A stretch of DNA of 49,560 nt from Klebsormidium nitens (lineage: Eukaryota; Plantae; Klebsormidiophyceae), in the NCBI GenBank assembly GCA_000708835.1, contig DF237577.1, forward strand, positions 1 through 49,560, read 5' to 3'. Below are positions 4,263 to 31,197 of the stretch, piece by piece. A program made the translations under genes and the position numbers. The notes beneath the pieces are model-generated. The model searched no databases. It was given only the letters and a program-made list of their open reading frames with translations, and was not told the DNA's origin. How positions within the stretch are numbered: position 1 is the first letter of the stretch; every line of letters begins with the position of its first letter.

Positions 4263-4528
4263 CTACTCACGGAGAACGACTCGATGGAAACCACACGTAG
4301 CAACCACACGGATATGGATTGGGTCAGGCATCATCACTCCGTCCCACCGCCTCTGGCCCGATCCCACCGCCCGACTTGAAATCCAGACATTCGCCATTCG
4401 CCAAAGCTGCACGCCATGTAGGGTGTTGTCTGCAACGACCAAAGTGCCCCCGCTCTCCAGGCTCTTGAACCGGCTCCAGCTGGAGGAGAAGTCCCTATCA
4501 AACTCGGACATGCCCGCCAGCTCCGACG
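4263..4528 (-). pseudogene. Displaced 3' end of the last exon of the host EsV-1-7-repeat gene at 27.8-29.9 kb
   Basis: 4476-4528 is the exact reverse complement of 29815-29867 (53 bp). The reading ELAGMSEFDRDFSSSW continues here to a stop at 4263. Confidence 0.7.
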
Positions 4529-4530
4529 GG

Positions 4531-4669
4531 ACGTTATAATTGATGGCTCCGAACGATACACAGAGAAGATGGAATTTCGAGGCCGTTGCTATAGGAGATA
4601 TCTCGACATCTCAAGTTTGAAATAGGCTTGAAAAACTGGCTTTTATCTGTGTATCTGCGCAAGGCTCAG
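4531..4669 (+). repeat. Dispersed repeat family B, near full-length copy
   Basis: Aligns over ~140 bp with the reverse complement of 18598-18737; internal 10-bp inverted repeat GATACACAGA (4555-4564) / TCTGTGTATC (4646-4655). Confidence 0.85.
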
Positions 4670-4840: not shown

Positions 4841-5108
4841 TGTACAATAATCTGTTATTTTTTCTTTCTTCTGTCCCGAAGAAACATATAACAGATAAGC
4901 AGTACGAGGTTTCCCCCTTTGGTACCATGTTGATAGTATGTATGTACTAAGGCCATACCAACGAAGATAACAGAATCTTATACTTGACTTTTCGGAAGAA
5001 AAATATAACAGATAAGTAGTACGAAGTTTCCCCTTTGGGACCATGTTGAGAATATGTACGTACTAAGGCCATACAACGAAGATAGCAGAATATTATACTT
5101 GACCTTTG
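4841..5108. repeat. Repeat family A array, left: short inverted arm, TGTCCC core, two ~117-bp tandem units
   Basis: Units start at 4878 and 4995 (GAAGAAA.ATATAACAGATAAG.AGTACGA.GTTTCCCC...TACTAAGGCCATAC...TATACTTGAC). 4841-4871 is an imperfect inverted copy of the unit start. Confidence 0.9.
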
Positions 5109-5206: not shown

Positions 5207-6372
5207 ATGTCAAAGGAGTTTGATCAGCAGCTGAAGCAGCTCGTCGAACGGTTCTACAAGCAGCATCCGGCCTCAGTGCCCCTGAAGAAGCTTCGGATGC
5301 TTGTCAAGAGTGCCTCGCGCAAGTCGCCCGGCCTCATGTTCAATCGATTCAGAGAAACCCTTCTGATCGAGGGCGTAGCCGATCAATCAGTCGCCGCGAC
5401 GCAGCCTTCTTCACGGAGCGAGAAGCACTACTGTCGCCCGTGCCTGGGTTGTTTGCACAATACCGTATGCTCGGTCAGGGAGAGGTCGAGAAGCTCTGGG
5501 CCGGTGCGGACCTCCTGGTCGAATGCACTTCGACCGATGACGTGCACTATGCCCCGGTGACCGACGAGAGTGGCTGGTCGGAGCTTCTGAGCGAGGTGCT
5601 GTCTCAGCACGTGCTCCTGCCGGCCTGCCTCAGGGAGAAGGTGAGCGGCTTCTTAGGCCTTATCGTGCAGTTTCTGGAGGGGCAGACGCACAATGAGCTC
5701 ACATCGGACTTAGACAGCCTCCTCGATGGTGTAGACCTGAGTGCGGTGCTCCCGAGTTTTTCGGGGCATCGCCCCGAAGATTCGGTGGAGCACAAGAACA
5801 CGGCTATCAACGGCGGCCTGCTCAAGGACCTCCTGCCGCATCTCAAGAGCCTTCAAACGGCGACCGAGGACCGTGCCATGGAGACGGCCCGCAATTTCCT
5901 GAGGTCCGAGTCCATGAAAGGGGTTGTGAGGGTGCTCAGAAGGGCCTTCCGATGCGTCGATTCCGGGATGCTAGTCCGTCTCCTCTCCGACGCCGTCGAA
6001 AAGCTGGACGTGGGTAGCGTCCCCGCCTTGATCGCGTCCGTTCAGGCCTTACAGGATGATCCGAACATGGTGCGGGGGGTCGCCATGCTCACACGGACCG
6101 CGAACGTGCCCGCACTGCAGGCCCTGGTACAGGACGCGGCACAGCTCGTGGATCCGAGCGTGATGCAGAAGGTGATCGGAGGGGGTACGGGTGGTAGCAA
6201 CGTGCTGTCCAACCTTCTCAGCGCCAGCGCCACGCCAGATATCGTGAGCCGTCTGCCGTCCATGATCAACCCAGACGGAAGCATAGACATAACGGCGGTG
6301 CCTGGGTTGATGCGAGGCCAGCGTAGGAAGCCTCCGAAGCCCCAGCTGACCGCATCCCGGCTGGCGAATTGA
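5207..6372 (+). pseudogene. NCLDV-type hypothetical protein (one frameshift)
   Basis: ATG 5207 (MSKEFDQQLKQLVERF). A 1-bp shift at ~5398 joins it to the 5440..6372 frame and restores VA(R)DAAFFTE; helical C-terminal region. Confidence 0.6.
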
Positions 6373-6430: not shown

Positions 6431-6992
6431 ATGGCTTCTGAACCCGTTTTCTTCCAAGACCCGGGAGTCCTCTTCCGCGGCGGCAAGGCGTTCGATATCG
6501 CCCCCTTTTCGGGCGGGAGTTATGCCGCGCAGATCAATTCTTCAGCCAGATTCATTGCGTACGTGGTCACTTGCGTGCTGGCGTACGCGATCGATCCGTT
6601 CCTGCTCGGATTGGTCGTGTGTGCCGGCATATTCATGTACGTCAAGTACCAACGGGAGCCCGAGGACGTGCCGCCTGTTTTCGTGGACTCTGCGGTCTGT
6701 TTGTCAGGGCCCGACGGCGCAAAACCCCATGGGCAACTTTCTTATGAACGAGTACGAGGAGAGACCGGACAGGCCCTCCGGCTGCGACCCGGCCGACGTG
6801 CGGGACGAGATCGATGCGCAGTTTTATCAAGGGCTGTACAGAGACCAGACGGACATCTACGAGAATGCCAATGCGCAGAGGCAGTTCTATCAGACGCCCG
6901 TGACCACCGTCTGCAACGACCAGCGGGCGTTCGGAGAGTTTTGTTTCGGCGAAGTCGGGGCTCGAAAGGCGAAGGGGACGCCATTCACTTGA
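6431..6992 (+). pseudogene. Minor capsid protein P9-like (chlorovirus P9 family, N-terminal transmembrane helices)
   Basis: FFQDPGVLF...QINSSARF plus hydrophobic helices. After a frameshift at ~6700: PTAQNPMGNFLMNEY..RPDRP..C...AQRQFYQTPVTTVCNDQRAFGEFCFG, the conserved P9-family C-terminus. Confidence 0.8.
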
Positions 6993-7024
6993 ACTCCGTT
7001 CACTTCAAGGATTCGGTCACCCTT

Positions 7025-7450
7025 TCATTGCCTCGATACATTCTGTCTGAACGCGTTTGCATCATTGATGTTGCCGGGCGGATATAATTTCAAAACATAC
7101 AAAAATGCGCCATTATCCATACGGGCCACTCCCGCACCAACTTTCTTCGTACTTTTCCAGGCGATGGCTGTTCCATGTCCAGTCGCGTTGTTGAATCCAG
7201 TCGGTTGTAATCATATAGATCCATCCTCCTTTGCCCACATGTCGATAGCATTGCACATGTCGGCTTCGAAAGACCAAGTCTTCGCCAGATTCTCGCCATA
7301 CTGCCGGTCGGTCGAGTGGACGAACACCTTCCAGTTGGCCCACTCCTGCGCCGCTCTCGCGAGCTGATCATCCCATGTAACTGCTGGGGCACCATGCCGC
7401 CTGCGAAAGTCGTTGATCTTTGCTAGGACTTGTGCTTGGTTGAGCGACAT
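7025..7450 (-). pseudogene. CAP/SCP (PR-1/GAPR-1-like) domain protein, two frameshifts
   Basis: INDFRRRHGAPAVTWDDQLARAAQEWA...GENLA...AIDMWAKE / YDYNR / GFNNATGHGTAIAWKSTKKVGAGVA...YVLKLYPPGNI..AFRQNV*; stop at 7025-7027. Confidence 0.85.
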
Positions 7451-7509
7451 GCTTCCGGTAGTATTGACACAAGGTTTTGTTGAGCTCGTACGCCTACTCG
7501 CACTTGCAA

Positions 7510-8226
7510 CTAGTCACACTTGCAAGTACAGGTCTTCAATTCGTAAGAATTGTAGCAGAATTGCAGGGGGTCTTCTGTGGGGAAGGGAGCGGGAGCCGGT
7601 GAGATCATGGTTGGCTGCGGCGTGCTTGGGGGGTCGGTATCGCAGGGCACAGAAGCCGGACCAGGAGCCACCGGAACGTCGATCGGCAATACGTCAGGAG
7701 GCGGTGAGGGTACATCTGTGCGTGAAGGAGCAACTGGCTGAGGCGCAATGGGAACGGGTTCGGGGGCGGGTGCGATCTGAGGTGCCGGAGCGAGCGGGGC
7801 CGGTGCTGGTTCATCACAGGGAGCTTCTGGGGTCGGAGTCGGGGTCTGGGTCTCAGTCGGAATCGGGGTTGGCGCTTCTGTGGGTGGTGGAGTCGGCGTC
7901 TCAGTGGGAGGCGGAGGTGGGGGGTCGGTCGGAGGTGGAGGCGGACTGGGTGTTTCGGTTGGAGGGGGGCTTGGAGGTAAAGTCAAGGGCGGAGGAGGTG
8001 GTGGATCTGTCGGAGCTGGCGTGACCGTCTCTGTTGCCGTTGGAGGAGGAGGGCTATTCGATGAGACCGGAAGAACTTCCGGTGTGGGTGTTGGAGTTTG
8101 CGTCATGTTGTGGCACGTGTGATTCATGCACAGCAGCGACCTCCTTGCCAAGCTTGCAGAGGACACGGAGCATGTGACCCCGAGAAGCAAGACACAGATC
8201 AGAAACGCATTCATAGCAGTTACCAT
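7510..8226 (-). CDS. Secreted Pro/Thr-rich (extensin/mucin-like) protein with Cys-rich tail
   Basis: Signal-peptide-like MNAFLICVLLLGVTCSVSSA, then PPPPTET/PTP repeats, C-terminal CYNSYELKTCTCKCD. Intact and intronless. Confidence 0.75.
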   Translation of the reverse strand: MVTAMNAFLICVLLLGVTCSVSSASLARRSLLCMNHTCHNMTQTPTPTPEVLPVSSNSPPPPTATETVTPAPTDPPPPPPLTLPPSPPPTETPSPPPPPTDPPPPPPTETPTPPPTEAPTPIPTETQTPTPTPEAPCDEPAPAPLAPAPQIAPAPEPVPIAPQPVAPSRTDVPSPPPDVLPIDVPVAPGPASVPCDTDPPSTPQPTMISPAPAPFPTEDPLQFCYNSYELKTCTCKCD

Positions 8227-8295: not shown

Positions 8296-8484
8296 ATGTT
8301 TGTCTGGTACTGCCTCATTGCTCTGCTGATCCTAGGCCTCCTCGTTGACTTCAAATCTGTCGAGCGCTTTACACCTTGGGCTGAGGTGAATCCAAGGCTA
8401 TATCAGAGGTACATCTCTTCTCCTGGAGTTTATTACCATTTTCGCCCAAAGTGTCGCCCCTGTTATGTCACGGGGGTAACATGA
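8296..8484 (+). CDS. Small single-TM virus-type membrane protein (62 aa)
   Basis: ATG 8296; MFVWYCLIALLILGLLV hydrophobic anchor followed by VERF, a pattern common in small NCLDV membrane proteins. Confidence 0.55.
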   Translation: MFVWYCLIALLILGLLVDFKSVERFTPWAEVNPRLYQRYISSPGVYYHFRPKCRPCYVTGVT

Positions 8485-8979
8485 AAAGGTGATAAATAGC
8501 AATAATACCAGAGTTAACTGGCTATCCCTCAGTCGCCCAGCGTCCTTGGTAGGCAGAGCCTGACCAGAGTAACTGGGTACTGAAGAATACTGTTCCTTTT
8601 TGTGGACAAGTACTAATACTCCTATGCCATGCCGTAGACCTCCAACCCAAATCCAAGCGACGCTGGTACATTGCACAGAGTGCAATCGCGCTTCAGGGAA
8701 GCTCAAAGATGGGCCTTTTGATGGAGGTCTCATACCGTATGTTGACGGGGCACGCTTAGGACAGCACTAGCCACTCTTCCAGTCGGTAACAAGTGATTCT
8801 CATAATTAGAACATACAGTACCCCCTGACAATTTTGAGGGGGATTTGAACGCACTTTCCAGGTCTTCAAGCGTTACACACCACAAGCGACACTTTCGAGG
8901 AAACTGGTAATAACGAGCAGACCTCCTGTTCGTAAACTACCTGACCATACAAGTCCTTCATCGTGCATCACCTAAGCCT

Positions 8980-10235: not shown

Positions 10236-10904
10236 TCAGATTGTCTCAATCGTAAAGAGTATGCCTAGATTTCTGCAAACACGCTCTACCTTCTCCAACA
10301 ACGTGGGTTTAGGGTCAGACTTGTAACTGTATACATGTATACGCATTGTCTTTTCTGGGAAAGACAATCCATATACCATGACCTGGCCTATGGCTTCCTT
10401 GAAACCCTCAACCTTCTTGACCTCAATTATATGATCAGGGGTCACTATATCTACAAAACCCGTTTCACACTTTACTTCGATCTGTGACCCGGGTATTGAA
10501 GCTGCTAAGCGATCACGCACAACTTCTTCACGGCGTTGCTTCACACCTTCCTTCTTACAATCCGCCAGACCTGTTAGATACTTCTGCCACGCTTCCGTTT
10601 GATGCCTTTTAGAATCTTCTAACTTTGATTCTAAAATGGTTCCTTGCAGATGGCGGAAGGGAAGGCGAGACACAAGCATGTAAACACCCTCTTCGTTGAT
10701 GTACCTCGTGTGCAAAGTATTGTAATCAAGCGTGGCTTCTTGCCCGAGTGATATCAGAGCCTTATATGTTGTGCAACCATGACCGTTCTTAAATATTTTA
10801 TGGATGGCAGCAGCAGGTTGCGTGTATCCAAGAAGCAGTGCAACATCATTTGCCCTGAAGTACGGTGCTTTGTCTGGTCCCACAAATAGAATGTTGAGAT
10901 CCAT
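10236..10904 (-). CDS. Bro-N domain protein with C-terminal PD-(D/E)XK-like nuclease domain
   Basis: PYFRANDVALLLGY..P..AI...YINEEGVYMLV (Bro-N); EVKCETGFVDIVTPDHIIEVKK...AIGQVMVYG...P...RIHVY (nuclease-like). Intact 222-aa ORF. Confidence 0.85.
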   Translation of the reverse strand: MDLNILFVGPDKAPYFRANDVALLLGYTQPAAAIHKIFKNGHGCTTYKALISLGQEATLDYNTLHTRYINEEGVYMLVSRLPFRHLQGTILESKLEDSKRHQTEAWQKYLTGLADCKKEGVKQRREEVVRDRLAASIPGSQIEVKCETGFVDIVTPDHIIEVKKVEGFKEAIGQVMVYGLSFPEKTMRIHVYSYKSDPKPTLLEKVERVCRNLGILFTIETI

Positions 10905-10997: not shown

Positions 10998-11113
10998 CCC
11001 CGCGCAGATACACGGATAACAACCGATTTACCAAAACTATTTCAAACTTGAGATGTCGTGTTAGCTTCATAAGGAGACGGCCTGGAATCCCCGTGTGTTC
11101 TGTGTTTCGTGTG
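10998..11113 (-). repeat. Dispersed repeat family B copy
   Basis: Reverse complement contains GACATCTCAAGTTTGAAATAG (identical to the 4531 copy) and ends TGTATCTGCGC; most similar to 17796-17912. Confidence 0.8.
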
Positions 11114-11311
11114 GTGCTATCGTCTACAACATTCACATTCTTACCGCCTGGCTTCACATCTGAATCTTCATCCCATGTGCTGACTGATATTGCTTTTTTC
11201 TACTCATTGCAAGAACGAAAGCACAGGGCCTTTTCCTCTGAAGCCACGTTTGTGACCTCGTGTGCCCAGACTGTGGCTGGTCGGAATTCTTCACAAATGG
11301 GACGCGAAGAA

Positions 11312-11881
11312 TCAGCTTCTCTCAAGTTGGATGGCAAAACTCATGTATCCGTCCTCTGCAATGTGCGACACCTCCAGACCGTTCTCCGCACAGAACTCGT
11401 CCACTGCTCGTTGCACGCCAAATGTATATTCGAAAGAACACTTCTTTGGATTCGACCCGTAATCGTGTCCACATATGTATCCCCCCACTTTAACCCTCGT
11501 CAGTGCTGCTGCAAGATCCCGCTTGGCACCTTCGTATGTATGGTTCCCGTCGATATAGATTAGATCGAAATACCCCATGTAGAATTGCAAGATCTCTTGC
11601 GGGGACCATGTCCTGTGAATGAAAACCCGGTCGTCATCTTCGAAGCGCCCCCGTACGTAATCAAATGCAGCGTCCCCGGGACATGTGCGGATAGAATTCC
11701 CATCACGATCACCGCTCATTAGCTGTCCCTCGAATGGATCTATGAGGTGCAATTCCGAGGGCTCCAGTGACAGCATGAACGCAGAAAAATCACCCAGAAA
11801 CACTCCCATTTCTGCCAACTTCCAGCCTGGCTCTATGATCACTCGAAGCATGTCCTCTCTGCACTCGTGATGGATAGCCAT
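11312..11881 (-). CDS. Class I SAM-dependent methyltransferase (Methyltransf_24-like)
   Basis: AEMGVFLGDFS, LHLIDPF, FDLIYIDGNHTYEGAKRDL, VKVGGYICGHDY, GVQRAVDEF. Intact 189 aa. Confidence 0.9.
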   Translation of the reverse strand: MAIHHECREDMLRVIIEPGWKLAEMGVFLGDFSAFMLSLEPSELHLIDPFEGQLMSGDRDGNSIRTCPGDAAFDYVRGRFEDDDRVFIHRTWSPQEILQFYMGYFDLIYIDGNHTYEGAKRDLAAALTRVKVGGYICGHDYGSNPKKCSFEYTFGVQRAVDEFCAENGLEVSHIAEDGYMSFAIQLERS

Positions 11882-12297: not shown

Positions 12298-12636
12298 ATG
12301 GCGACGGCAGCCTACTCACAAAAGGTCTTTGCACTGCACAATAGCACCATCTCCCCTCCAACCATCCCCAGGCAGCAGCGCCATGTTGGCCGCTTTTGTG
12401 TCAAGGTGACAACGGACGTCGTCGACGGGAACGGAATGAGACGCATGACGTTCAAGGGATATGGCCCCGACGAAGACGTGATCGTCAGAAAGACGATTGC
12501 AGCTCGCAACAAGCACAAACGAGAGGAAGATTGGGTGACGGAGCCGTTGGTCACAACGGTGGGCATCTGCGACTTGTGCGACAACAGAATTGAAGTCTAC
12601 AACATGCGATCCCAGTCTTGCTACCACTTGCTATAA
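12298..12636 (+). CDS. Hypothetical protein
   Basis: ATG-started 112-aa ORF converging on the next gene with a 7-bp gap. Confidence 0.5.
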   Translation: MATAAYSQKVFALHNSTISPPTIPRQQRHVGRFCVKVTTDVVDGNGMRRMTFKGYGPDEDVIVRKTIAARNKHKREEDWVTEPLVTTVGICDLCDNRIEVYNMRSQSCYHLL

Positions 12637-12643
12637 CAGCTGA

Positions 12644-12961
12644 CTACTCATACTCTTCTCCGACTACGTCGCTGGCCGCACCGTAACGACCCAAGAAGTC
12701 GTTCTTCATGCTTCGCCAATTTCGCCAACCGACATAGCCCCCTCTGACGCGCCGCTTCTTCAGGATCTTCTGCAACACCAGATTCTCCATCGCGACCTTT
12801 TCTCTCTGATTCGAAGGCACCTCCTCGGCCCGCAGCCCCATCGCCGTCGGGTCCGCAGAGATCTCACTGACCTCTGCAGTAATCATTCGCTCGACCGCAA
12901 TGCACGTCATGATCCTCTCTTTGCGTGCTTCTTGCATAGCCTCCCAGAGAGCCTGTGCCAT
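12644..12961 (-). CDS. Hypothetical protein
   Basis: ATG-started 105-aa helical, charged ORF. Confidence 0.5.
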   Translation of the reverse strand: MAQALWEAMQEARKERIMTCIAVERMITAEVSEISADPTAMGLRAEEVPSNQREKVAMENLVLQKILKKRRVRGGYVGWRNWRSMKNDFLGRYGAASDVVGEEYE

Positions 12962-13072
12962 CTCCAGTTCGAGCAGCTGCTGTGGAGGGCTGAGGTCCTA
13001 TGTAGTCGGGAACTCCGAGTCCATTCCGTACCTACATGCCCGAAAAAATGATCATCCATCACAGCGCACGCC

Positions 13073-14247
13073 ATGCAACACTATAGCAAGAGCGACGAAA
13101 TTTTGGGGTCGAGCGAATTTAAGACAGTCTACTCTGGCTTCGATCACAAGCAGGGGGTGGCGATCGCTTGGTCGGTGATAGACCTGAAGTCAGGTGAGTG
13201 CACGGACCAGCTGGTGCGGACGCTCCAGCTCATTCAACGTGTGGAGCACGACCATATAGTGTGCATCCACGACTGGTTTTTGGACACCGACGCAGGAAAG
13301 ATGCACGTGGTCACTGACCCGGCAATCTCCAAGACCTCCTGAAAGCTGCCGGCTAGATGGACGAGATCGTCTTGAGAAGGTGGGGATTCGACCTGCTGAC
13401 GGCCATCTCCTACGTTCACAGCCTCAACGGCCCCCTCCTGATCCGGAACCTGCGCATGGGGAACGTGCTCATCCATCAGGACGTGGGAATCATCAAGCTC
13501 GACCTGCTCAGCGTCTCGTTCATATTCACCTCCCACGGGCACGCGAGAGAGAAGGTGGAGCAGATTCGGATCATGGCCCCCGAATGCGTCCTCGGCCCGA
13601 CGGACGAGAGGGTGGACGTCTACGGTTTCGGAATGGTCATGCTGGAGGCAGCCACCAGGGTGCAGCCCTACAAGGAGTGCAGCACGTTCGCGAGCCTCTT
13701 CGACAAGGTCACCCACTTCCAGCCGCCCACTGCTCTCGCCCAGGTGCAGAACAGCGGCCTCCGCGACATCATAAGAAAGACATTCCTGAGAGCAGCCGAC
13801 CGGCCCTCTGCCCAAGAATTACTCCAGCTCCCCTATTTCCGATTCGAGCCCAGCCTGTGGGGCATGCACGTCGTGGTGATCGACGACGACCCAGTGAATC
13901 TCAAGGTGTGCTCCAGACTGCTGGAGAAGGAGGGTGTCACGGTCGTCCCTTGCAGCACCTTTGGTGAAGTGGTCACCTTGCTATCCACGAGGGCCTTTTC
14001 GGCCGTCATCACGGACATCATCATGCCCCAGATGAACGGCCTCGAGCTGACCAAGAAGCTGCGGCAGCTGAGGTACAACTCCCTCATGATCATCGGAGTG
14101 AGCGCAGTAAAGAGAGACGACATGGACGAACGCATGGGGGAGAGCGGCATGGATGCGTTTCTCCAGAAGCCGTTCAACTTTGAGAACCTCAGGGTCGCTT
14201 TCACGCGGGCCCGCCTGAAGAGGACCTCGAGCGCAAAGGACCTTTGA
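13073..14247 (+). pseudogene. WNK-like pseudokinase fused to a C-terminal response-regulator receiver (REC) domain
   Basis: ILGSSEFKTVY..FD...G.AIAW (WNK signature), MAPE, DVYGFGMVMLE, PYKEC, RPSAQELLQLPYF. Then VVVIDDD, ITDIIMP.MNGLEL, GVSA, FLQKPF (REC). One frameshift at ~13330 and a TAG at 13354-13356. No introns. Confidence 0.85.
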
Positions 14248-14262
14248 GCCCCGGGAAACTTA

Positions 14263-14668
14263 CCGGTATGGCCTTACTACATACATATTCCCAACTGAGG
14301 CCCAAGGGGGAAACTCCCTACTGCTTATTTGTTATATTTTTCTTCTGAAAAGTCGAATATAATATCTCGTGACTTTTTGCCCGGTGTGGCCTTACTACAT
14401 ACATATTCGTACTCGAGGCCCAAGGGGGAAACTCCCTACTGCTTATTTGTTATATTTTTCTTCTGAAAAGTCGAATATAATATTTGGTCTCTTTTCCGGT
14501 ATGGTCTTAGTTACATACATATTCCCATAAAGGTCCCAAAGGAGAACCCTCGCACTGCTTATTTGTTATAAAAATTTTCCTCTGTCCAGAAGAAAAACTT
14601 TATAACAAATTACAGTACGAGAGTTCCGAAGCCCCCTGGCCGTTGCTGATATGTATGTATGTAAGCCC
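14263..14668. repeat. Repeat family A array, right: three reverse-oriented units, TGTCCA core, one partial forward unit
   Basis: Units start at 14263, 14381 and 14496 and are reverse-complement homologues of the 4878/4995 units. Core at 14583-14588; forward arm to ~14668. Confidence 0.9.
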
Positions 14669-14927: not shown

Positions 14928-15211
14928 CTCTTGGAATGAGGATTCTGGAGAAAGAAGAAAGCCTTAAGTAAGGGTTGCTGATGGCGAGCTGTGGCGTGAT
15001 CTGTGGCGCACCCTGGCAAGTTCGTGGCAGGTTGTGGCCTGCCGCGACACTCCACGGCACTTCGCTCCACCAAACATCAATTGTCACCTCAAACTCTAAT
15101 ACACCTTCCCGGGCAATTTGTCGAATGTATATTGAATTCTCGGCCCGTCAGCACAGACTTTCACAATGTATGAGACAAAGCCTCACCTACATCCTTCAGC
15201 AGTGAAGCTTC

Positions 15212-16226
15212 TCATGACCCTTGAACATCCGGTAGCATGGGTCGCACATGAGCACCTCCTTCCCGTACCAACGGTCCTGGAATACCCCGCCTCTTCAGCA
15301 GCCTGCTCTTTCCCGGAACATGTTCCGGGTGCGTGCAGGACTCATCTCTCTTTGAGCGTTTGTGCAAAGAAAATGAGGCCTTCTGCTTCCTCTTCCCCCT
15401 CCCTTTTCTAGGTGCATGCAGGAGCTGATATGGCCTGCTCGCCTCTGTTGCTGAGCTGCTCTTACCCGCGGCCACTGCCTCTGAGACCACGACTGCCTCC
15501 CGTTGTGAAAGCTGCCGCAGGCTGACACCCAGAACCTCTGCTATGCCCCTACGCTGCCGACCAATCTCCACCCTCGCATCGCTCGAGGACAAGCCTTGAG
15601 CTTGCACATCAGCTCTAAGCGACGCACCCAACCCCACCAAACTTTGCTCTGAAACAAAGAGGGAACCTCCGAATCCAAAGGAGTGTTTGGTGGTGCTTAC
15701 AGCATGTCCACACCCAGCAGGTATGAAAACCAGGTCCCCCCCGTTTGCTACAAAAGTGATGTCAGGTTCCGGCATACCTTTGCCACTTTTGAGCCCTGCC
15801 AAGAAAGCCCTCTTTGACGGTCCGTGAGGATTCCAGAAGCTCCACACCTTCTGACCTCTGACGAGTGCCATCCAACCCAGAGTACCAGCAAAGTCGACAT
15901 GGGCCCGAGTGTAGAAACCCTCATCAGATGCTACAATACTGAGAGAGGAGTGCGTGGGATCCTCGAGGAGATCAGGCAGCACATCCTTACCAACAGAGAA
16001 AGGCTGGATGAGGTCTAATATGGGAGAGGTCTTTGGCAGGTAATGCTCAAATACAGCCCTCGGTCTTCCGCTCTCCTTAGGATGCTCCAGGAATGTTTCC
16101 AGGGGGCAGGGCCGCTTGATGATGGCCTGCTCTGCAGTTTCAAGGTTCTGGAAGAATGCTTTTTCAACGAGGTCTTTGCCATGGTATTGGACTACAGCAG
16201 CCTCCGAAGTGGGACTACATATCTGC
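15212..16226 (-). pseudogene. JmjC/cupin-domain protein, 5' end broken
   Basis: YTRAHVDFAG...GQKVWSF...GDLVFIPAGCGHAVST...GFGG (HxD...H triad intact). The frame stays open upstream to a TAG at ~16227 with no ATG. Confidence 0.75.
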
Positions 16227-17672: not shown

Positions 17673-17795
17673 GTCAAGACCCTGCGTTTTTAATCGCACA
17701 AAAGTCCGAGCAGATAAGGAAAGTGACTCCGAACGTGAACTGCAATCCACGGTAGCATAAGTAGTGTATAGTAAACTTAATAGCAGATTGCGCCA

Positions 17796-17912
17796 CACGA
17801 AACACAGAGCACACATGGTTTTTCAGGCCGCTCCCATATGAGCTAACACGACATTCCAAGTTTGAAATACTTTTGGAAACATATGTGTTATCGTTGTATC
17901 TGCGCAGGACTT
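17796..17912 (+). repeat. Dispersed repeat family B copy
   Basis: ACACGAAACACAGAGCACAC...AGGCCG...GCTAACACGACATTCCAAGTTTGAAATAC...TGTATCTGCGCAGG; homologous to 10998-11113 (reverse complement). Confidence 0.8.
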
Positions 17913-18597: not shown

Positions 18598-19015
18598 GCA
18601 TGAGTCTTGCGCAGATACACAGATGACAGCCACTTTGCCGAAAGTATTTCAAACTCCAGGTGTCTAGTTATCTCATATAGCAACAGCTTGACTTCTCATC
18701 TGCTCTGTGTATCGTTCAGAGCTGTCACTCATAACATACCCTGGGCAAACTCGATGAAGAACGAAAAAATCCCTGCTTTGCATGACATGTAAGTCTTGCA
18801 CATATACACAGATGGCAGTTGGATTCCCAAAGGTACTTCATAGACTTGATATTATCGAGAGTTGGTCCCTTGAAGACAATTGAAGAATCCCCCATTAGCC
18901 TAGTTTATCGCTCGGGTCGTAAACTCAAAAAATGCCTCGAACTTGAAATTAGATCCGTGTGCAGATACGCAGATGACAGTTGGATTTTAAAGCAACGGCC
19001 TGGAGTTTCCATCTT
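18598..19015 (-). repeat. Cluster of three family B copies (18598-18737 near full; 18791-18860 and 18957-19015 partial or internally deleted)
   Basis: Recurrent (GAGTCTT)G(C/T)GCA(G/T)ATAC(A/G)CAGATG(A/G)CAG on the plus strand, plus AGGCCGTTGCT segments. Confidence 0.8.
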
Positions 19016-20476: not shown

Positions 20477-20498
20477 GACTCCTATTCCCAAAAGTATT

Positions 20499-21297
20499 TT
20501 AAAGCTGGGATGACGAGTTATCTCCTATAGCAACGGCTTTGCCTTCCCATTTGACGTTATCGTTCTGTATGTTGTGTAATCCGCTGTACAAACTCCAAGC
20601 GGCAACCGGTGGATTTGGTGCCTTGGTCGCATCACGGTAAACCCGGTGCCATGACAAGTCGTTATTTTCTGCGGCCTCAGCAATTGTGTCATATGTCTTA
20701 TAGCAACGGCTTTGAAATCCGATCTGCTCTGTGTATCTTTCGGGGCCGTCAACTATAATATCTGACAACATCTTTACATGCAATGGGTTTACTACTCTGC
20801 AAGAGGCTTCAGCGAGATGCCCCCCAAAGCCCCTGCATCGCTTGAATTCAAGCTCCAATTCCCACACCTTGAAGCCGACTGTATGCATAATCTGTCCAAC
20901 CAGCCTTTGGCCGAGCATTACTCCCTGGCTCTTGCCACAGGTGGCCAAAAGGCGCGTTCGAAAGTCCTTAAATGTCATCTGCTCTGATGGACCGACAGTG
21001 CAATGCTCGTTAATGAACCGCCTGACCTGCTTCTCCGCATGTGCCACCGAATAGCCGGTACATGGGGGGGCCTTAGACGTCCATCGGAGAAGCATCTTCA
21101 GTGTGCTGCTCGACGTTCTTTGCGATGCCGGTCGGCTCGTCCGTACGTGACTGCTCGTTGACCTCCTCGGAATCGAGCGTAGGTCCAAGTCTGCCAATTT
21201 CCACACAGTTATCCTCCGCGTGCCACTCGGCTTCAATGACCATCAAGTCGTCGATGGCGACCAACTCGAACGTAAGATAGATATCGCTTTTTTGCAC
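20499..21297 (-). pseudogene. Degraded virus-type DNA-binding protein fragment; overlaps two family B repeat pieces (20487-20550, 20694-20766)
   Basis: VRRFINEHCTVGPSEQMTFKDF resembles C-terminal helical domains of NCLDV KilA/T5orf172-type proteins; the 3' part of the ORF is repeat-derived. Confidence 0.35.
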
Positions 21298-22835: not shown

Positions 22836-25095
22836 TCATGCCTTGATGATGTCACTCTTCTTCATCAAAAGGGTGGCGGCAGTCTTGGGGTTTGGGACGA
22901 CAAGCACTGGGACGGGGCAGTGGCTCACGAGGTAACTGCTCACACTGCCCAAGAACAGACTGCAGAAATCGTCGGACAAATGTTTGTGCAAGTCACGGAA
23001 AATTGACGTTGAGACTCTCCTGAGATTCTTTCAAGACTTGTTTGAATCCACCTCAAGCTCGACTATCATATGATCTGACCCGCTTTTCATACTTGCTCGA
23101 CCTTTGTGGGACACCCAAGATTTTTGAACATTGGGTTTCCTCAGGTCTTTGGTGGACAGTTGACAGCAGAAGAAAACACATGAAAGATTGCCTCACCCTC
23201 GTTTTTGAGCTTATCAGGCACAATGTGAAAGAAGCTGTTTCAGGGAGGGCCCCAACGAAAAAGAGCTTCATCCTTGCTTCTGTCAACACGTTGAGAGCTG
23301 GTCAGCACTGATCGAGTCCTTGAATTGTGCGAGAGTGTTCCGAAGTGTTCGAAGTGCCAAAGTCAAACGTTGTTTCTCTTGAGCCCTGGCCACAATATCA
23401 AGGCATTCGAGATGTGCAGGATCTGCCAAAGCGTCCAGGATCTGCAGAATCTGCATTCATAATTCGAGATGGAGAAAAGGTAAAGTTGCGTGCATTCAAA
23501 AGGACGGAATCACAGCTGCCATGTCCTGGAAAGAAGCAGCAAAACACAACTCAGATTGTTCTGCGTTGCGTCTCTTCCCCTTGCGTCTCTTCCCCTCGTG
23601 AAAATCGTGTTGTAAATGCCATTGACACAATAGCTTTCAAAGCGGTTACTTTACAGAGGAGAGGATATTGATTGAGCATCAACCTTTGGGGGGGAACAAC
23701 AAGTATCGAGAGAAGCATGTTCAAGTAAGAATACCAGGGAAGGGTCTTGGAAGTGTGAACTTCATCCATCCATAAGGAAGCGCCCACCTTTTGAACTTGC
23801 CCTGTCCACGCGTCCCGACCACCACCATGTCCACAGGGTGCTGCATGACGTAGTCGAGGATCAGCTGCCGGGGATCTCCGGGAAGAGCCACCAATTCAGC
23901 ATCTACCTGTGAAAAAGGCCAGAGCAATCATTACACACCAATGTGGGCCAATCAAGACCCAGTTTGCAAAAGCAACTCTGCAGAAGATCCTTGCTGGAAT
24001 TCCGCTCCTGCCTACTAGAGAGATTGGTGGCTGGTCTGTCCACATTACAGGAGGGGGACTGATCCAAGCAACGTTCTCATGCTGAAGGGTTGAAGGACCA
24101 ACTGCACAGGATGAGCCGGCTTCTCAGACGACCTTGAAATCGCGACAAGATTAACAGGTTTCTGTTTCTGTGGCCATTGCGTGTTGCTTACAGACGCGTT
24201 GCTTTCTTCAACCAGCAGAGACTCTTAATGCTTGGAATTCATTGCATACAAGCACTCCCTAGAAATCTAGTATGACCGGGTTGCTGCAAGTATACCAGAG
24301 CGCAACCTGCTCTCACTACACTTCTCTTACAACAGGGCAAGGAAGTGAGAGACTTTTGCAATGTGACACTTGGCTTCTTACCTGGATCCCTGCCTTGATA
24401 CTCTTCAAGTTGGACAAGCATAGCTGCACAAGGCGCTCCTGGGCAGCAGCAATTTGGTCGTCTGCTATAAAACCTAGTTCCGCATCATCGTACACTGCAA
24501 ATAGAACAACAATGTACCAAAGAGGTCTGCCTGGGAGTTGGTCCACAAGCTATCATATACAAGCACAACTTTGTTGTGACATGTGGACAGGGCCTGACAC
24601 CAGTATGGAAAGAGAAGGGTGACCCTGCTGATTCTAGGTTGTTTTCTAATAATCGTATATCTACGACATTTTTTAAATGCTGGTAGAATGATCCCAGAAA
24701 TGTCACAGGTCCCCTTCAGATCCTGACTTTGGCGCAAGACTTTTGGAAAACAAAAAGCATGGAGGCTTTGCCATAGAGCCTACGGTTGTTGAGTTCCTGA
24801 GAAGCCTAGCTTTCGTTTTACCCCTCAAATCAAAGGTTCATAGAAGACACATGAAGTAAGTCACCAATCTTAGGTATGACATCACCACTGTTTTGAGAAT
24901 TTCGGACTTACTGTCAACAGCCCTTGTCGCCTGAAAGAGAATGAGCTTGTCGCCATTTTCCGGCTTGACCAACTCATCCAGCACGAACTGCAGCGCCAAG
25001 GCGGAATTATCCGAGTTGTCCAAAGCGCAGAGCACACGCTTTCCAGTGGTAGCCTTCAGTTGCTCTTTAGCTTGCGCAACCTCGGTAGCAGCCAT
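22836..25095 (-). CDS. Universal stress protein A (USP) family, intact 4-exon host gene, 179 aa
   Basis: Exons 25095-24912, 24494-24382, 23906-23788, 22959-22836 with GT-AG introns and consistent phases (540 nt). RVLCALDNS, GDPRQLI, DMVVVGTRGQG, LFLGSVSSYLVSHCPVPVLVV. Confidence 0.93.
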
Positions 25096-27772
25096 GGCCT
25101 GAATGTTAAGGCTGCTGACATAAACGACGATTGCAAAGATGTTGAATGTTGAACTTAGCAGATTGTGCGCATAGAGCTGTGCCCTACTTGGAATGTTTAC
25201 GCGTGATTATCGTGGTTACCGTGGTTACCGCTTCAATCCTAGCGGCTTCTAAAAAGTATAATTTTGTATCATATAACGCTGATAAATAAATGACATAGAA
25301 ACTATGTTAAAAGATTATATTTCAGGTCGAAAAGGGAGCGCTGTCGATTGTTCGCGTCGGAAGTTAGAAAAAGCACTCACGAATATTTGGTCTTATGTTG
25401 GATCACTTAACGACAATTCTGGAAGAAATAACAGAAATGTATGCGCTAACTCTGGTCCTGAAGGGACTATCAAGCCAACTGCCGGGAATATCATTTCGGC
25501 TAGAAGTAAAGCAACTCAAAAAGGGCAGTGGTGTGGAATATGCAGATTTCGCGCGAAGTCGTGTCGTGAATAAGGTGTAGATTGGGTGACATTTTGGTTG
25601 ATAACCCCTGTGAAAAGGCGGTAACCGCCTGCCACCAACCCGACTTACCAATTTTATCGAAACTGGAGCTTTTCTCACTTTCGCAGCAATACCCTTTCAC
25701 TTTTTCCCGAAAGATCCTGCATTGTGCGAATTGACAGTGGCGGTACGGTCGGTATTAGGTACGGTATTTGATTAAGCGTCAGATTCGGCAGCAATTCGGA
25801 GATTCGCCACGTGGCTCGGCCAAAGATTCTGTTTCGTTTGCTGGCCCCGGAATTCGAAAGCCGCGATAGGCCGAGAGCAAACGACACATGGTGCGACGAT
25901 TCGATTTCTCTGACTCCACAGGAGGCGCACGATTGGTCGCAAGGGGAAATGACTCATGGAGAGACTGCGATTGGTCGGCATCCGAATGGACCCATGGGTC
26001 AAATATTGTTTGAACTTTGTTCTGGGCCTAACAACTGGTAGGCAATCTCAAAAGATTGCTACGATCTCATGGACACACGAAGACCGTCGACCTAGATCCT
26101 TTCAGATTCTTTCAGGGAGCGGATCAGGCCGAAGTTGCCTCCGTGTCTCTCGCTGTGCTCAACCCTCTTTCTGATCCCCGATTTCTTACTTAAGATCCCA
26201 AGACTGTGTTAAATCGTAATCAACCGTCTCGGAACATCCTCGATTAAGCAACGCTCACTGAAGCCAGAGGGCGTTCGTACTCCGTAATTACATTCTTCTC
26301 CTTCTACTATGCTGTTTGAAAAGCCCGGAATCATTGTTCTTTGCTTGGAAGCTCATGTGACTACTACAGCAGAAGAATCTGCCAGGACTTGATTGCGATC
26401 GAATTTTCTTTCGAACTTTACGTTAAGCTTACAGCCTGGCGCAGTCAACTTCCAATGCCACGGGATTATCAGAAGAGAGGAAAGGAAAGATCCATTCCTA
26501 CACCCAGGTGCGCCTACACTTGGTCTGCTGCAGTGGTCCTATACCTGGGGCGGAACCACCGTTCTCTTCGACCCACAAAAATCTGAAGGTGAGGCCACAA
26601 TGCGACAGACCTTCTTTGATTCTGATTTCATGTGATGCTTTAGGTGGCCCCAGAAGGCAAAGCCTGCGTTGGATGTATTCACAGCAGGCTTCTACTTTGT
26701 ACACTATCTTGTCACAGCGTTGAGGAAATGAGATGCAAAACAATGGGCCCTTGCTCTCATCTGACCACTCGTTAGAATGTGGTCTCTGCTTAGCAAGCGT
26801 TTTAGTATCTTGACTGCACTTCCAGATGCGTTCTCGCACACCACCCAGTCTTTCAGTGCTTCAAGAAAGAAGCGGGGCATTTCACATCAAGGCAGACCAT
26901 AAGATCAGAAAACCCCTGGATGTCGCTGTATGGGGGCAAGACAGGCGACCAGCCTCAGACCAGCACCTCAGGAACTGGAACTGTGTGCTACAGGAACAGG
27001 AAATACGGGCATCCCTAAAGTAACACATGTTGCAAAAGACCCAACAAGGTTCCCTGTTTGCAGGGATCAAAAATGATGGGCTTACTTTATTGCTCCATGT
27101 CAGGAGCTGACCTTGAAATTTCGTATCAGGGTCATCTCTTCCACCTAGCGTGATCTTCCAATGTTGCATCCCCTCATCTCTCTGTAGGCACCAGCTGCCT
27201 CTCGTGCTGCTCTTCTGGAATTGCATTGACTACTGTCCCCTCTGCGAGCTTTCTGAATCTGCAATTCACTTTGTCCGGAGCCGTCTGCGCGGTCCCCGCA
27301 CAACATGAACAGCAGGTGCAGCCCCGCAGCGACACCTGCGCTTGAGGCGGTAAAGCACGCGCGGGGCGGAGGGGACAAGAGGGTCACACCCAAGTTGCTG
27401 GAGGTTTGGTTCCAGAAGGATTGTAAGGAAAGGTTGTGTTTGTAGGAGAGCTTTCAAATTTTGCAACTTTTGTTTGCTTTGCCTGGGATTAGGAGTGCTC
27501 ATTGGAGCCAAGTGACAGTGTTGGATCTACAAATATTTGCTGTAAGTTTGCAGACCCTGCACGCAATTGCAACTTTTATGCTGGCAGCCTCTGTAAGAAA
27601 CCTTTTGCCTAGTTTCCATGCCCATCAATGTCGTTATTTCTTGGCTACTCTTATCTACCCTTTCACGCCTTTGTCTTTCAGTTGAAAATTCTTAACTGCA
27701 AACCGTCATTCGCTGCCTGGGCACTGAAGACACAGCGTTGCAGCACCTGACTTCTTTCCCTGCACCCCACAG

Positions 27773-29867
27773 AGAGAGGCGCTGTCCTCCACCCATCCAC
27801 AGGTGGGGCGACGCACCGCTGCAGGTCCCCCGGCTGCATCCGGTGGACATCATATGGGTTTATCACCAAAAAGGTGGGCGCGCGCTGGTGCCATGCCCAC
27901 GCCACGGACGGCATGGAAGACCTGCGCATCCTGAAGTGCTCCAGTGTCGCCCGAGGGGGAGGGCCCTGCCGTGCCCAGCCGTCACATGGCTTTGAGGGGG
28001 ACAAGCGCCCCATGCGGTGTCGGAAGCACGCAGAGGATGGCATGGAGAACGTCAGGATGCCAGGGTACGCTGCCAGGGGATCCCCTTGTTTTTTCCTGGG
28101 GAGTGAAGGCAGCCGGTAGGGCCGTCAGGACGGGGTCTGCTTTGCTGCATGATTGATTGCTCTAGTCTACACAGGTCTGGCCCAGGTTTGCATTCTCGCA
28201 GTGCTGTTTCACATCCGCGCTGCAGATTGCGTACTTTACCAAGTGGCAAGGCACTGATCTTTCCCACCCTTTTCTTTCAGGTGCCAACATCAAGGCTGCA
28301 AGCGACAGCCGCTGTACAGGGAGCCGGGCCTGGACAAGAAGCCGACCCGCTGCCGCAATCACGCTCTCCCCAGTATGAAGGATCTCGGGGGGGCCATGTG
28401 CTGGGGGGGCGACGGCTCCTGCACCAAGCGCCCCTCGTATGGTTTCCGGAAGAATACCCGGCCGATGCGCTGCGGCTCACACAAGGAGCTGGGCATGGAG
28501 GACCTCATCAGCACGAGGTGAGGGGCTGGAACGGGTTCTTTGGCAACAGAAGAGTAAGAATGTAGTTCTGGCGTGGAACAATACCTGCTTGTGGTGGTGC
28601 TGGCAGCTGGTGTGTTGTGTCTTGAAGGCTTCGATGCTGAACTTCTCAATTGAATGTTTTGCACGATTGCTCGAGCTCCCTTGGGGCAGGCCCTGGAGTT
28701 GTCGAGGTGCAAGGACTTAAAGTTATGTTCCTTGCTTCTTAATTTACCCTTGTCCCAGGATCCACTTCCCAAAAAGACGTTCTTAGTACCTCTACATTCC
28801 TACACGCGGTTTGCCCATTTGCACCCTTTCTGAATTCTCTTCTACCTCCCTCGCAGGTGCAACTTCCAGGGCTGTCGGACAATCGCCTCGTACGGCGTCC
28901 GAGCCCCCAACAGCCATGTGATCCGGCGGATGCGCTGTAAGGCGCACTGCACCCTTGAGATGACGTGCGGGACCAAAGGCCCCGCATGCACGGCCCCGGG
29001 GGGGTGCCAGACGCGCCCCTCCTATGGCTTGCCCGACAAGTTTGACGGGGAGCACCACCCCTTCCCCAAGCGTTGCAAGAAGCACTCGCTGCAGGGGATG
29101 GAGTACACCAGATTGGCGGCGCGGGCCAAGAAAAAGCGTGCTCTCGAGATGGCGAAGCAGGTGAGGGTCAGAGCTGTGGCTTTTCTTGGCCACGAGCGTC
29201 GCTGGAATGATGCTAGCAAAGCCGTAAACTTAAAGCAACTCCGTGAACGGGCTTTGTAATGACACCGATGTCGAACCTGCTTTTCTCTGCCAATCTCCAA
29301 GGAGTTAAGCCTCACAGGACTCTCCCTGGGGCTCAGACAGACTTGCTCTTAGTCCGAGCTGCGATTTTCTACAATTCTACACCTGCTCTTGACCGACCTA
29401 GATTCCTTGCGATATTTGCTGACCAACAACCTCTTTCACATCAGGAGCCCGCTTCAGTCGTGTCTCGACCACCGATCACCGCCCGCAGTGCGGCCAAGCC
29501 GCTCTCACTGGCTCCCACCCCGCGGCTTCGCTCCACCCTTAAGTGCGCCATGGCCACAGCCCCAATCGTCGAGCCCAACGAAGACGAGGACTTGGACGAG
29601 GACTTGGACGCCAATGAAGCGCAAGCCGAAGACCTGACCCGGACGTGGCCCCGCGAGAGCTGCATGCAGGGCTCCCCCGAGGAGCAGATCGCGGTGGTGC
29701 AGCAAAGGGAGCAGAAGGCCTTCGAGAACTTGGGCGATCTGGTGACGCTGCAGGAGCTGGAGGAGATTGAGGACCAGAAGAACGATCAGATGTGGGGCCG
29801 CGACGGGCCGAGCTCGTCGGAGCTGGCGGGCATGTCCGAGTTTGATAGGGACTTCTCCTCCAGCTGG
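27773..29867 (+). CDS. Intron-containing EsV-1-7 cysteine-rich repeat protein; last exon cut at the inversion breakpoint
   Basis: Phase-consistent exons 27773-28064, 28281-28517, 28857-29160, 29445-(29867). Six C...GC...(P/S)YG...RC..H...GM repeats. 5' exons (probably within 26.1-27.4 kb) not resolved. Confidence 0.75.
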
Positions 29868-31197
29868 GGCCGCGTCGTTATGATGCCGCCCTCGTCCACG
29901 TTCAGCTCGTCCTTGATGGTGCGACAGAGGTGAAGAGGCCGTGAAGGGGATTCTCGGAGGTTCCTAGGTCGCCCGTGCACGACAGGCTGTTGCTCCCGAG
30001 GTCCAGGTCCCCAGAAAGGGTCAGGTCTCCGGTAAGCGTCATGTCCCCCGAAAAGGTGGCTCCTGCAGCGCTCAAGTCTCCGGTGAGCTCTGCACCGTCG
30101 GCGTAGAGCGTCCTCCACGTGTTCGAACTGGATCCCAGATCAAAGTTTCCATTGCTGCCCGGTTCTACGTGTGATGAAAAAGAAGCATTGCTAGCCACAT
30201 TCAGGGACGTTGCAAACACACTGCCCAAGCGGGCGCCGGATGAGCCGAGGTCACCTGTGCTTGCGACCGAGTTACTTCCGAGGTCGAGTCTTCCCCCAAT
30301 CGTGGCACCGCCCGAGGTTGTCAGCTGTCCCAGCCGCCCACTGCGGACATAGAGGGTCTCCCATAAATTCGAAGCCGCACCCAGATCATTTGAGCCAGCA
30401 GGCACTAGAGACATGTCAAAGGGCACGATCCCCGAATCTCGATTCAGGATGGAGAACCCACCGTCTTCATTCCCAATCAGTCTGACAATATTGCTCCCAG
30501 CCTCCAGTCCGACGTCACCACCTCGGACCAGCCATAGGCCCCCATTCGAGTGTTGCCAAGTGAACGAGATGGCGTCCGGGCTACTCGAATAATCATCACC
30601 CATGACGTGAATGCCGGCGCCATCAGCATTCGAATCGGAGGGCGCATCGGAATGGGCTAAAGTTATAGTTCGGTCCTCCACCAGAAGGTCCGTGCTACTT
30701 ATGTAATTGATGGGTCCATTCACATCCAGTTTGCCATTGATCCTCACATTGCTATCAAACAGTGCATCCCCGCTGGCAACATGCAATGCAGCAAGCGGAT
30801 CAGACGCCCCAATGCCAATCGTATCACTCGTCAGAGTGCTGGAATAGATCGCCTCCCATGGAGCTTCTGAACTCCCGAGATCGAAGCTTCCCACAGGTAC
30901 CACATTTGTTGCAAAGAAACCGACGCTATAGGTGCCGAGTTCTATATCCGAAGCGGACGCACTCGTTGCCAAACGCTTCAATGGCGCCCCTCCCTGGTAG
31001 AGGGTCGTCGCATATACACCCTTGTATTGCAGATTGGATGAGCCTAGACTGATGCTGTTATTAGTTGCGGGTAACAGATTCGAACTGGGAGCGGCACTTC
31101 CACCACTGGTTTCGAGGGGCACGGTGCCCTTGTAAAATTCATTCGCATATACCTTCCCAAAGCGGACGGTACCCGAGTAAGACTTTGCCGTGTACAT
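29868..31197 (-). pseudogene. Virus-type fibre/tail-like repeat protein, 3'-truncated
   Basis: 431-aa intronless ORF with repeated (L/V).P....DLGSS...W..LY motifs and VEDRTITLA...ADGAGI. A 1-bp shift at ~29925 extends it (TIKDELNVDEGGIITT) to the breakpoint at 29868. Confidence 0.7.

Follow-up and report, generated by a model that had tools for sequence, protein, structure and literature searches.

A damaged copy of a WNK-pseudokinase–receiver gene in likely giant-virus DNA of Klebsormidium nitens

A gene at positions 13073-14247 of a Klebsormidium nitens contig (DF237577.1, assembly GCA_000708835.1) joins a WNK-like kinase fold to a two-component receiver domain, and its reading frame is broken. 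What the intact protein would do, to which family it belongs and whether it came to this genome with a virus are the questions raised by this locus. We addressed them in the whole stretch of DNA available, 49,560 nucleotides long and henceforth termed the window, and in homologues from sequence collections. Our answer is that the gene appears to be a broken copy of a WNK-pseudokinase–receiver family lying in likely giant-virus DNA. Judging from sequences, predicted models and analogy, the intact protein would likely serve as a phosphorylation-controlled adaptor or decoy, and we consider the chances of this reading as a whole to be evenly balanced.

Two forward-strand open reading frames (ORFs), 13073-13342 and 13357-14247, cover the locus in different frames. 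Pfam profiles detect Pkinase on both (E 2.5e-5 and 1.3e-10) and Response_reg on the second, 13357-14247 (E 3.8e-23), in each case well past chance. The motifs named in a preliminary description of this DNA were all found in place on the forward strand: FKTVY starts at 13118, IAW at 13163, IRNLRMGN at 13441 and DLL at 13501, followed by APE at 13576, DVYGFG at 13615, IDDD at 13879, ITDIIMP at 14008, GVSA at 14095 and QKPF at 14164. The locus is composed of the following parts:

13073..13342, forward strand: N-lobe of the predicted WNK-derived pseudokinase, with Gly loop GSS, the beta-2 Lys in FKTVY and no alphaC Glu; out of frame near its end
13317..13326, forward strand: 10-nt gap (frameshift) relative to near-identical copies in other runs; exact position ambiguous
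13354..13356, forward strand: premature in-frame TAG, real in the source run; no stop in run X5
13357..13839, forward strand: C-lobe of the predicted pseudokinase, with IRN for HRD, LLS for DLG and no GTP activation-segment motif; APE Glu, alphaF Asp and alphaH Arg retained
13840..13869, forward strand: short linker, constant in length in 14 of 14 members compared
13870..14247, forward strand: receiver of hybrid-histidine-kinase type, with DD pocket, phosphoacceptor Asp, Ser, Lys-Pro and basic C-terminal helix
14263..14584, no strand assigned: 118-nt repeat in 2.6 copies directly after the gene, represented by many source-run contigs at deep coverage

Both lesions, the gap and the TAG, are covered by one contig of the probable source run X1 with 0 differences, which rules out assembly error as their cause and upholds the earlier view that this copy was inactivated by a frameshift and a stop. 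Run X1 also contains a paralogous copy that has the 10 nt and differs at 38 positions. A contig of run X5 with 3 differences shows neither gap nor stop, and a 1,153-nt contig of run X8, covering 13193-14335 with 12 differences, has the 10 nt as well. DNA from these other runs (X5, X8) is 95-99% identical to the surrounding block, and the gap is absent there. The indels that break the P9_TM, CAP and other neighbouring genes are likewise missing from X5 and X8, and those of a JmjC-like gene from X5. Near-identical DNA without the gap, combined with similarly broken neighbours, indicates that the block has evidently decayed recently in this strain and that copies of the element, 95-99% identical to it, still exist in other material. 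Runs X6 and X10 hold a deeply covered copy over 12541-13451 from which 284 nt of the kinase N-lobe are deleted; it retains a minus-strand ORF (12644-12961) and diverges from the window past 13451.

The deposited model GAQ90330.1 (P0001), 100% identical to the second ORF, jumps both lesions by means of a gap of ~161 nt. As the skip removes conserved kinase sequence, this gap looks like an annotation patch. A real intron across the lesion is ruled out, the skipped stretch being conserved coding sequence in all intact members, and the gene can still be called intronless. Two other K. nitens models also look patched: in GAQ93352.1 (P0007) the receiver runs on into a PF08719 domain, and in GAQ91173.1 (P0003) five residues are missing after the catalytic loop. 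Folds and searches were performed with intact natural homologues, and the broken gene was not read through its lesions.

Homology searches and one exhaustive profile search delineated a narrow family of 15 full-length kinase–receiver clusters, with identities down to 40%, that splits into two subclades. Among 43 matches at E<=1e-20, 17 are members (the 15 full-length clusters and two halves of one split copy); the remaining 26 comprise 14 ordinary WNKs and 12 receiver-bearing proteins. At the 50% level the family is just as narrow, with four clusters among 1.84 billion representatives and ordinary WNKs following from E 5e-53. Both domains occur together in 23 of 352 collected proteins, all 23 of them family members. 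The clusters derive from K. nitens (3 models), JGI (4), Logan (6) and ENA (2). Intact members reside on assembly contigs of up to 93 kb and, judging from the data sources, are probably single-exon gene calls. The contig encoding P0008 is 93 kb long, and those encoding P0323, P0004 and P0167 measure 67, 63 and 34 kb. The preliminary description had named an intron-bearing host gene of the same architecture as a case that would speak against it. No long, intron-bearing host WNK–receiver parent was found among 120 listed of 534 longer matches, a weak test with 7,993 candidates scored, or in the top 150 representatives of the profile search. A metagenome-contig scan yielded 10 loci, all of them receiver matches and none a family member. 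We reject a prokaryotic origin, since the 15 matching loci in GTDB prokaryote genomes match the receiver only, with 0 kinase matches.

The kinase domain is, by sequence and predicted fold, WNK-derived, as had been proposed. WNK3 and WNK1 lead a PDB sequence search at 1.9e-43, versus 2e-22 for the next kinase, and WNK1/WNK3 are also the best PDB matches when the predicted model of the intact homologue P0008 is searched with Foldseek. A VIA structure search with this model gave a WNK Z score of 28.9 (rmsd 2.2, 237 residues aligned), compared with 26.9 for the next non-WNK. The P0008 model reaches a pLDDT of 88.8 and a pTM of 0.83 across both domains with an input alignment padded with WNKs and unrelated receivers; the fold predicted from family rows alone (13 sequences) is poor, with a pLDDT of 60. 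A fold search of BFVD returned only generic viral kinases at 14-23% identity.

The pattern of retained and lost residues is uniform. The beta-2 Lys is kept in 17/17 family kinase domains, the beta-3 position being S or C. None of the 17 domains has the alphaC Glu, either the His or the Asp of HRD, or either the Asp or the Gly of DLG, and all 17 lack the second Gly of the Gly loop and the activation-segment Gly-Thr. For comparison, 171 of 174 other kinases keep the catalytic Asp, and a family member misfiled among them accounts for one of the three exceptions. Two positions in the catalytic region persist, the catalytic-loop Asn and an Asp one position before the DLG site (16/17 each). HMMER, MAFFT and hhalign all align the WNK DLG without gaps to LLS, one residue after DLL, which suggests that the Mg-binding Asp is replaced and that 'DLL' has its Asp at the position just before that site. 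The preliminary description was thus right that DLG is replaced and mistaken in taking DLL for the replacement. In total, 21 of 55 WNK-invariant positions are changed, mainly in the catalytic and activation segments; structural residues of the C-lobe shared with WNKs are kept (E195/T198/Y203/E205/C206/P222/R247). Since catalytic residues are missing in all 17 domains, the pseudokinase state goes back to the ancestor of the family. The call of a pseudokinase, made originally on one damaged copy, now describes a family trait, and loss of HRD and DLG by decay after insertion is ruled out, as none of the 17 domains retains them. We regard this as almost certainly a pseudokinase family. Databases label the K. 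nitens copies by their two domains only, as kinases; given the missing catalytic residues and at least one model patched over a lesion, these annotations are likely wrong.

The receiver presents the opposite picture of preservation, and its canonical residues, reported as complete for the copy in the window, are intact across the family. The phospho-Asp, the Ser/Thr and the Lys-Pro pair are kept in 15/15 receivers and both pocket Asp residues in 14, a count that leaves out P0007, whose model continues into another domain. In P0008 numbering, Asp275, Asp318, S/T347, K369 and P370 are each present in 15/15. A basic C-terminal helix is also kept. In NCBIfam it scores best against the BarA, RcsC and TorS receivers, and the closest non-family proteins compared are terminal receivers of hybrid kinases. 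Within this comparison it lies nearer to hybrid receivers of bacterial type, a weak sign in a set that lacked plant receivers. The residue two positions after the phospho-Asp (D+2) varies among I/V/K/R/Q/C, so that a fast-phosphatase signature is not conserved. The linker between the two domains shows no length change in 14 members and is 81% identical within the larger subclade. We consider it likely that the receiver is phosphorylated.

To place the kinase domain among its relatives, we used a mixture-model tree of 59 sequences, comprising 10 family members, 4 short WNKs and 45 other WNKs picked from ~170, with no outgroup and no NRBP. The family and the four short stand-alone WNKs (P0176, P0180, P0280, P0233) split from the 45 other WNKs with support of 100/97; long branches are joined in this tree, and the kinship to the short WNKs may accordingly be an artefact. 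A wider set of short (276-364 aa) stand-alone WNK-like kinases groups with the family (P0176, P0316, P0180, P0318, P0319, P0280, P0233), and their catalytic motifs are mostly intact. We would guess that they are candidates for virus-encoded active WNKs. P0176 had no match in IMG/VR, and a short-WNK profile retrieved eight loci there, none of them a WNK, the best being an ordinary kinase with a beta-3 Lys.

Comparison with known systems shows which features are shared and which set the family apart. With WNK1/WNK3 and plant WNKs it has in common the fold, the beta-2 catalytic Lys and ~28-35% kinase-domain identity; unlike them, it lacks the HRD Asp, DLG, alphaC Glu and activation-segment motif, and the receiver follows the kinase directly in place of a long regulatory tail or CCT. 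NRBP1 and NRBP2 similarly combine a WNK-related kinase fold with missing HRD, DFG and VAIK motifs, and the accessible text of PMC12266122 describes NRBP1 as a pseudokinase without HRD/DFG/VAIK that binds and activates WNK. The NRBP1 tail, however, consists of a BC-box and a CCT, whereas the family ends in a receiver throughout, and Pfam identifies only Pkinase, PK_Tyr_Ser-Thr and Response_reg. The label 'NRBP-style' is therefore apt as an analogy, based on the missing motifs, and inapt as a statement of membership, the CCT tail being absent. Because the WNK Lys is kept and no top non-family match shows the NRBP pattern, this pseudokinase likely arose independently of NRBP.

On the receiver side, the family resembles the CKI1 receiver, ARR22 and BarA/RcsC/TorS in receiver type and in all residues of the phospho-chemistry. 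It differs from hybrid histidine kinases in having no histidine kinase core and in placing its receiver behind an ePK-fold domain, and from the type-C protein ARR22, which is a receiver only, in the fusion to a 260-aa kinase fold, found in 15 clusters. Pkinase and Response_reg are also united in one chain in fungal Rim15-like proteins, in myxobacterial and planctomycete STK-REC proteins and in chlorophyte cNMP-kinase-REC proteins, and generic kinase–receiver clusters are common in Myxococcota, Planctomycetota, Chlorophyta and Ascomycota (Atlas clusters). These fusions differ from the family in size and additional domains, and none ranks with it in the profile searches. To our knowledge, they are built on different, active kinase families. 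Rim15 is counted as a response regulator in the portion of PMC4344368 available to us. The hybrid histidine kinases of EsV-1 likewise represent two-component parts in algal large DNA viruses and their inserts; they are sensor histidine kinases, whereas the family pairs a receiver with a pseudokinase output. Kinase–receiver proteins, WNK-like pseudokinases (NRBP) and algal-virus histidine kinases are thus already known. What appears to be new is the combination of a WNK-derived pseudokinase with a hybrid-type receiver: together with a viral setting, it was not found in the literature searched, which had subscription papers mostly, and supplements, outside its scope. The preliminary description had also named an already widespread and described architecture as counter-evidence; that holds for kinase–receiver fusions in general and does not extend to the WNK-pseudokinase version. 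The gene is evidently dead in this strain, and the family is intact and conserved elsewhere.

The case for a viral origin is made by the neighbourhood. Dense unspliced ORFs, many of them broken, occupy two blocks at 1-21 kb and 27.7-35 kb, with P9_TM, CAP, Bro-N, methyltransferase, weak JmjC, MYND-finger and EsV-1-7 (x3) domains. The annotated genes in and between these blocks are:

6431..7087, forward strand: P9_TM minor-capsid-type gene (giant-virus virion family), E 1.7e-6; frameshifted near 6696 relative to other runs
7090..7513, reverse strand: CAP-domain gene, broken near 7199-7225
10236..10904, reverse strand: Bro-N protein gene, E 8.4e-9
11312..11881, reverse strand: Methyltransf_24 gene (Pfam)
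15212..16225, reverse strand: JmjC-like gene, weak Pfam match; indels near 15065 and 15273 relative to run X5
22839..25095, reverse strand: universal-stress-protein gene, in pieces in different frames, between the two virus-like blocks
27751..29259, forward strand: three EsV-1-7 cysteine-rich motif fragments (second virus-like block), EsV_1_7_cys down to 8e-21

The P9_TM, Bro-N and EsV-1-7 neighbours point to an endogenous giant virus; the universal-stress-protein gene is likely an intron-containing host gene. Several distinct Phycodnaviridae-like (NCLDV) inserts in the K. nitens genome are described by Gallot-Lavallee and Blanc in the accessible part of their paper (PMC5294986). MCP/capsid, PolB, A32 packaging ATPase and VLTF3 had no match among 88 window ORFs scanned (36 + 27 + 25), which are a part of the ORFs of the window, where genes are broken. 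ORF 5440-6372 had no usable Atlas match, and the neighbouring genes and repeats of the window had none in IMG/VR scans. Pattern scans of IMG/VR also retrieved no family member. As these scans yielded no member on a contig of a free virus, the case for viral origin is drawn from the neighbourhood; the 'viral cassette' of the preliminary description is borne out by the virus-type neighbours and goes without a counterpart in IMG/VR. Overall, we find it quite probable that the family is virus-borne. The second block also contains a 431-aa Gly/Ser/Asn-rich ORF (29902-31197, reverse strand) with weak matches to unnamed PHROG families, which presumably resembles a virion fibre protein. JmjC, the domain of the gene at 15212-16225, is the most enriched domain in giant-virus inserts of Amoebidium according to the text of PMC11244446 that is accessible.

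How might the intact protein function? We propose large DNA viruses of Klebsormidium-like algae as the carriers of the family and a single origin for it, in which a short stand-alone WNK would have decayed and fused to a hybrid-histidine-kinase receiver. The receiver Asp would take phosphate from a histidine phosphotransfer (HPt) protein, as do hybrid-kinase receivers and ARR22, and the protein would in this way both sense and drain the host phosphorelay. The fixed-length linker would transmit the state of the receiver to the dead kinase. There, the conserved surface of the C-lobe may dock another protein, and the analogy with NRBP1 makes a host WNK, or a protein that interacts with WNK, the most plausible candidate. 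It is the conjunction of a conserved dead kinase, a competent receiver and a fixed linker that suggests a phosphorylation-controlled adaptor; ATP binding without catalysis is possible and would fit this explanation. That the binding partner belongs to the WNK pathway is a tentative and somewhat doubtful part of the proposal, which draws on the NRBP1 analogy. A complex prediction for P0008 with a plant WNK kinase domain, run without alignments and with a stand-in WNK, scored 0.01, which counts neither for nor against such binding. The boldest version holds that giant viruses of terrestrial streptophyte algae independently invented an NRBP-like WNK pseudokinase as a single-chain converter from His-Asp phosphorelay to WNK salt/water signalling, and we consider it decidedly unlikely. 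If true, it would represent viral hijacking of two stress-signalling systems, leading from cytokinin, ethylene, osmotic or light sensors to WNK, and would hint that phosphorelay and WNK signalling were connected in the algae from which land plants arose.

The most serious competing explanation, unlikely in our view, is a pure phosphate sink. Here the receiver would withdraw phosphate from host HPt proteins, as ARR22 does, and the dead kinase would act only as a scaffold for stability or localisation, unconnected to WNK signalling. Such a role would suit a hybrid-kinase receiver, a type known to dock on HPt proteins, and the receiver is indeed the best conserved part between the subclades, at 42% versus 36-38% for the kinase lobes. 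As far as the accessible sections of PMC7402358 go, ARR22 and the isolated CKI1 receiver dephosphorylate AHPs, and ARR22 overexpression dampens cytokinin responses; histidine kinases are moreover numerous in the host, with an unusually high 67 in K. nitens, as given in the part of PMC6324907 at hand. A sink, however, has no need of a 260-residue kinase fold, yet members as distant as 40% identity share the fusion, the linker length and the beta-2 Lys, and the D+2 position varies.

Alternatively, the input might not be the host relay at all: the protein could serve as response regulator in a phosphorelay encoded by the virus, running from a viral histidine kinase to this receiver, through which environmental cues would set the timing of latency, reactivation or lysis. 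We rate this as very unlikely. The same portion of PMC6324907 records histidine kinases in Ectocarpus viral inserts, which, along with the 67 of K. nitens and the likeness to bacterial-type hybrid receivers, would be in keeping with a viral relay. That likeness is the weak one discussed above, however, and neither a histidine kinase nor an HPt protein was matched among the 88 window ORFs scanned.

Still another possibility, highly improbable in our estimation, is that the family is a Klebsormidium host orphan or mobile-element family, such as a retrocopy or transposon cargo, that happens to lie beside viral debris. K. nitens is the only named organism with members, IMG/VR gave no match, and repeat arrays flank the block. 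The gene also has a GC3 of 0.84, compared with 0.44-0.73 in 10 neighbours measured, which could point to a host-adapted gene. Against this, each of the three K. nitens models shows apparent damage or patching, the matches listed include no intron-bearing parent, and intact members are single ORFs on their long contigs; in addition, the gene has decayed jointly with the neighbouring P9_TM and CAP genes, and run X8 shows this block in colinear form. An atypical active kinase or ATP sensor using the invariant beta-2 Lys and the shifted Asp is scarcely credible, since, for all the conservation of the Lys (17/17), catalytic-loop Asn and Asp before the DLG site (16/17 each), the catalytic base is absent in 17/17 and the alphaC Glu and activation-segment GT motif are gone as well.

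Returning to the adaptor or decoy reading, a viral family would mean that a large DNA virus carries a response regulator whose output is a pseudokinase, and that this virus belongs to a group for which inserts in a sister lineage of land plants are the main source of knowledge. The family would also show WNKs becoming pseudokinases by a second route, likely an independent one, and so provide a test of whether NRBP-style WNK regulation is a repeatable solution. The intact natural homologues, at ~400 aa and with a confident in silico fold, are directly assayable.

The repeats around the gene deserve separate description. Besides the array directly after the gene, the 118-nt repeat recurs as a pair at 4878-5074, inverted relative to that array, and the arrays bracket 9.2 kb ending with the gene. 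The source run and X5 cover this repeat with many divergent contigs at a depth far above that of the gene, which indicates a high-copy family, possibly a viral homologous region or an element end. No exact match to it was found in IMG/VR. A second dispersed repeat of ~120 nt, with 71-84% identity, occurs in both orientations in the left block, at the following positions:

4533-4668: ~120-nt repeat copy
11002-11121: ~120-nt repeat copy
17786-17911: ~120-nt repeat copy
18601-18735: ~120-nt repeat copy
20495-20553: ~120-nt repeat copy
20691-20758: ~120-nt repeat copy

This repeat likewise has no exact match in IMG/VR, and joints between its copies in run X5 hint at rearrangement. The 480 nt at 8431-8910 are missing from the colinear X8 contig and are likely an insertion in this strain. 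A 58-nt inverted repeat (4471-4528 and 29815-29872), 98% complementary across 25 kb, links the virus-like blocks. Finally, CpG observed/expected falls to 0.74 at 15001-37500, with an excess of TpG/CpA, compared with 0.94-0.96 on either side, which suggests that methylation has driven an older phase of decay in this central part of the window.
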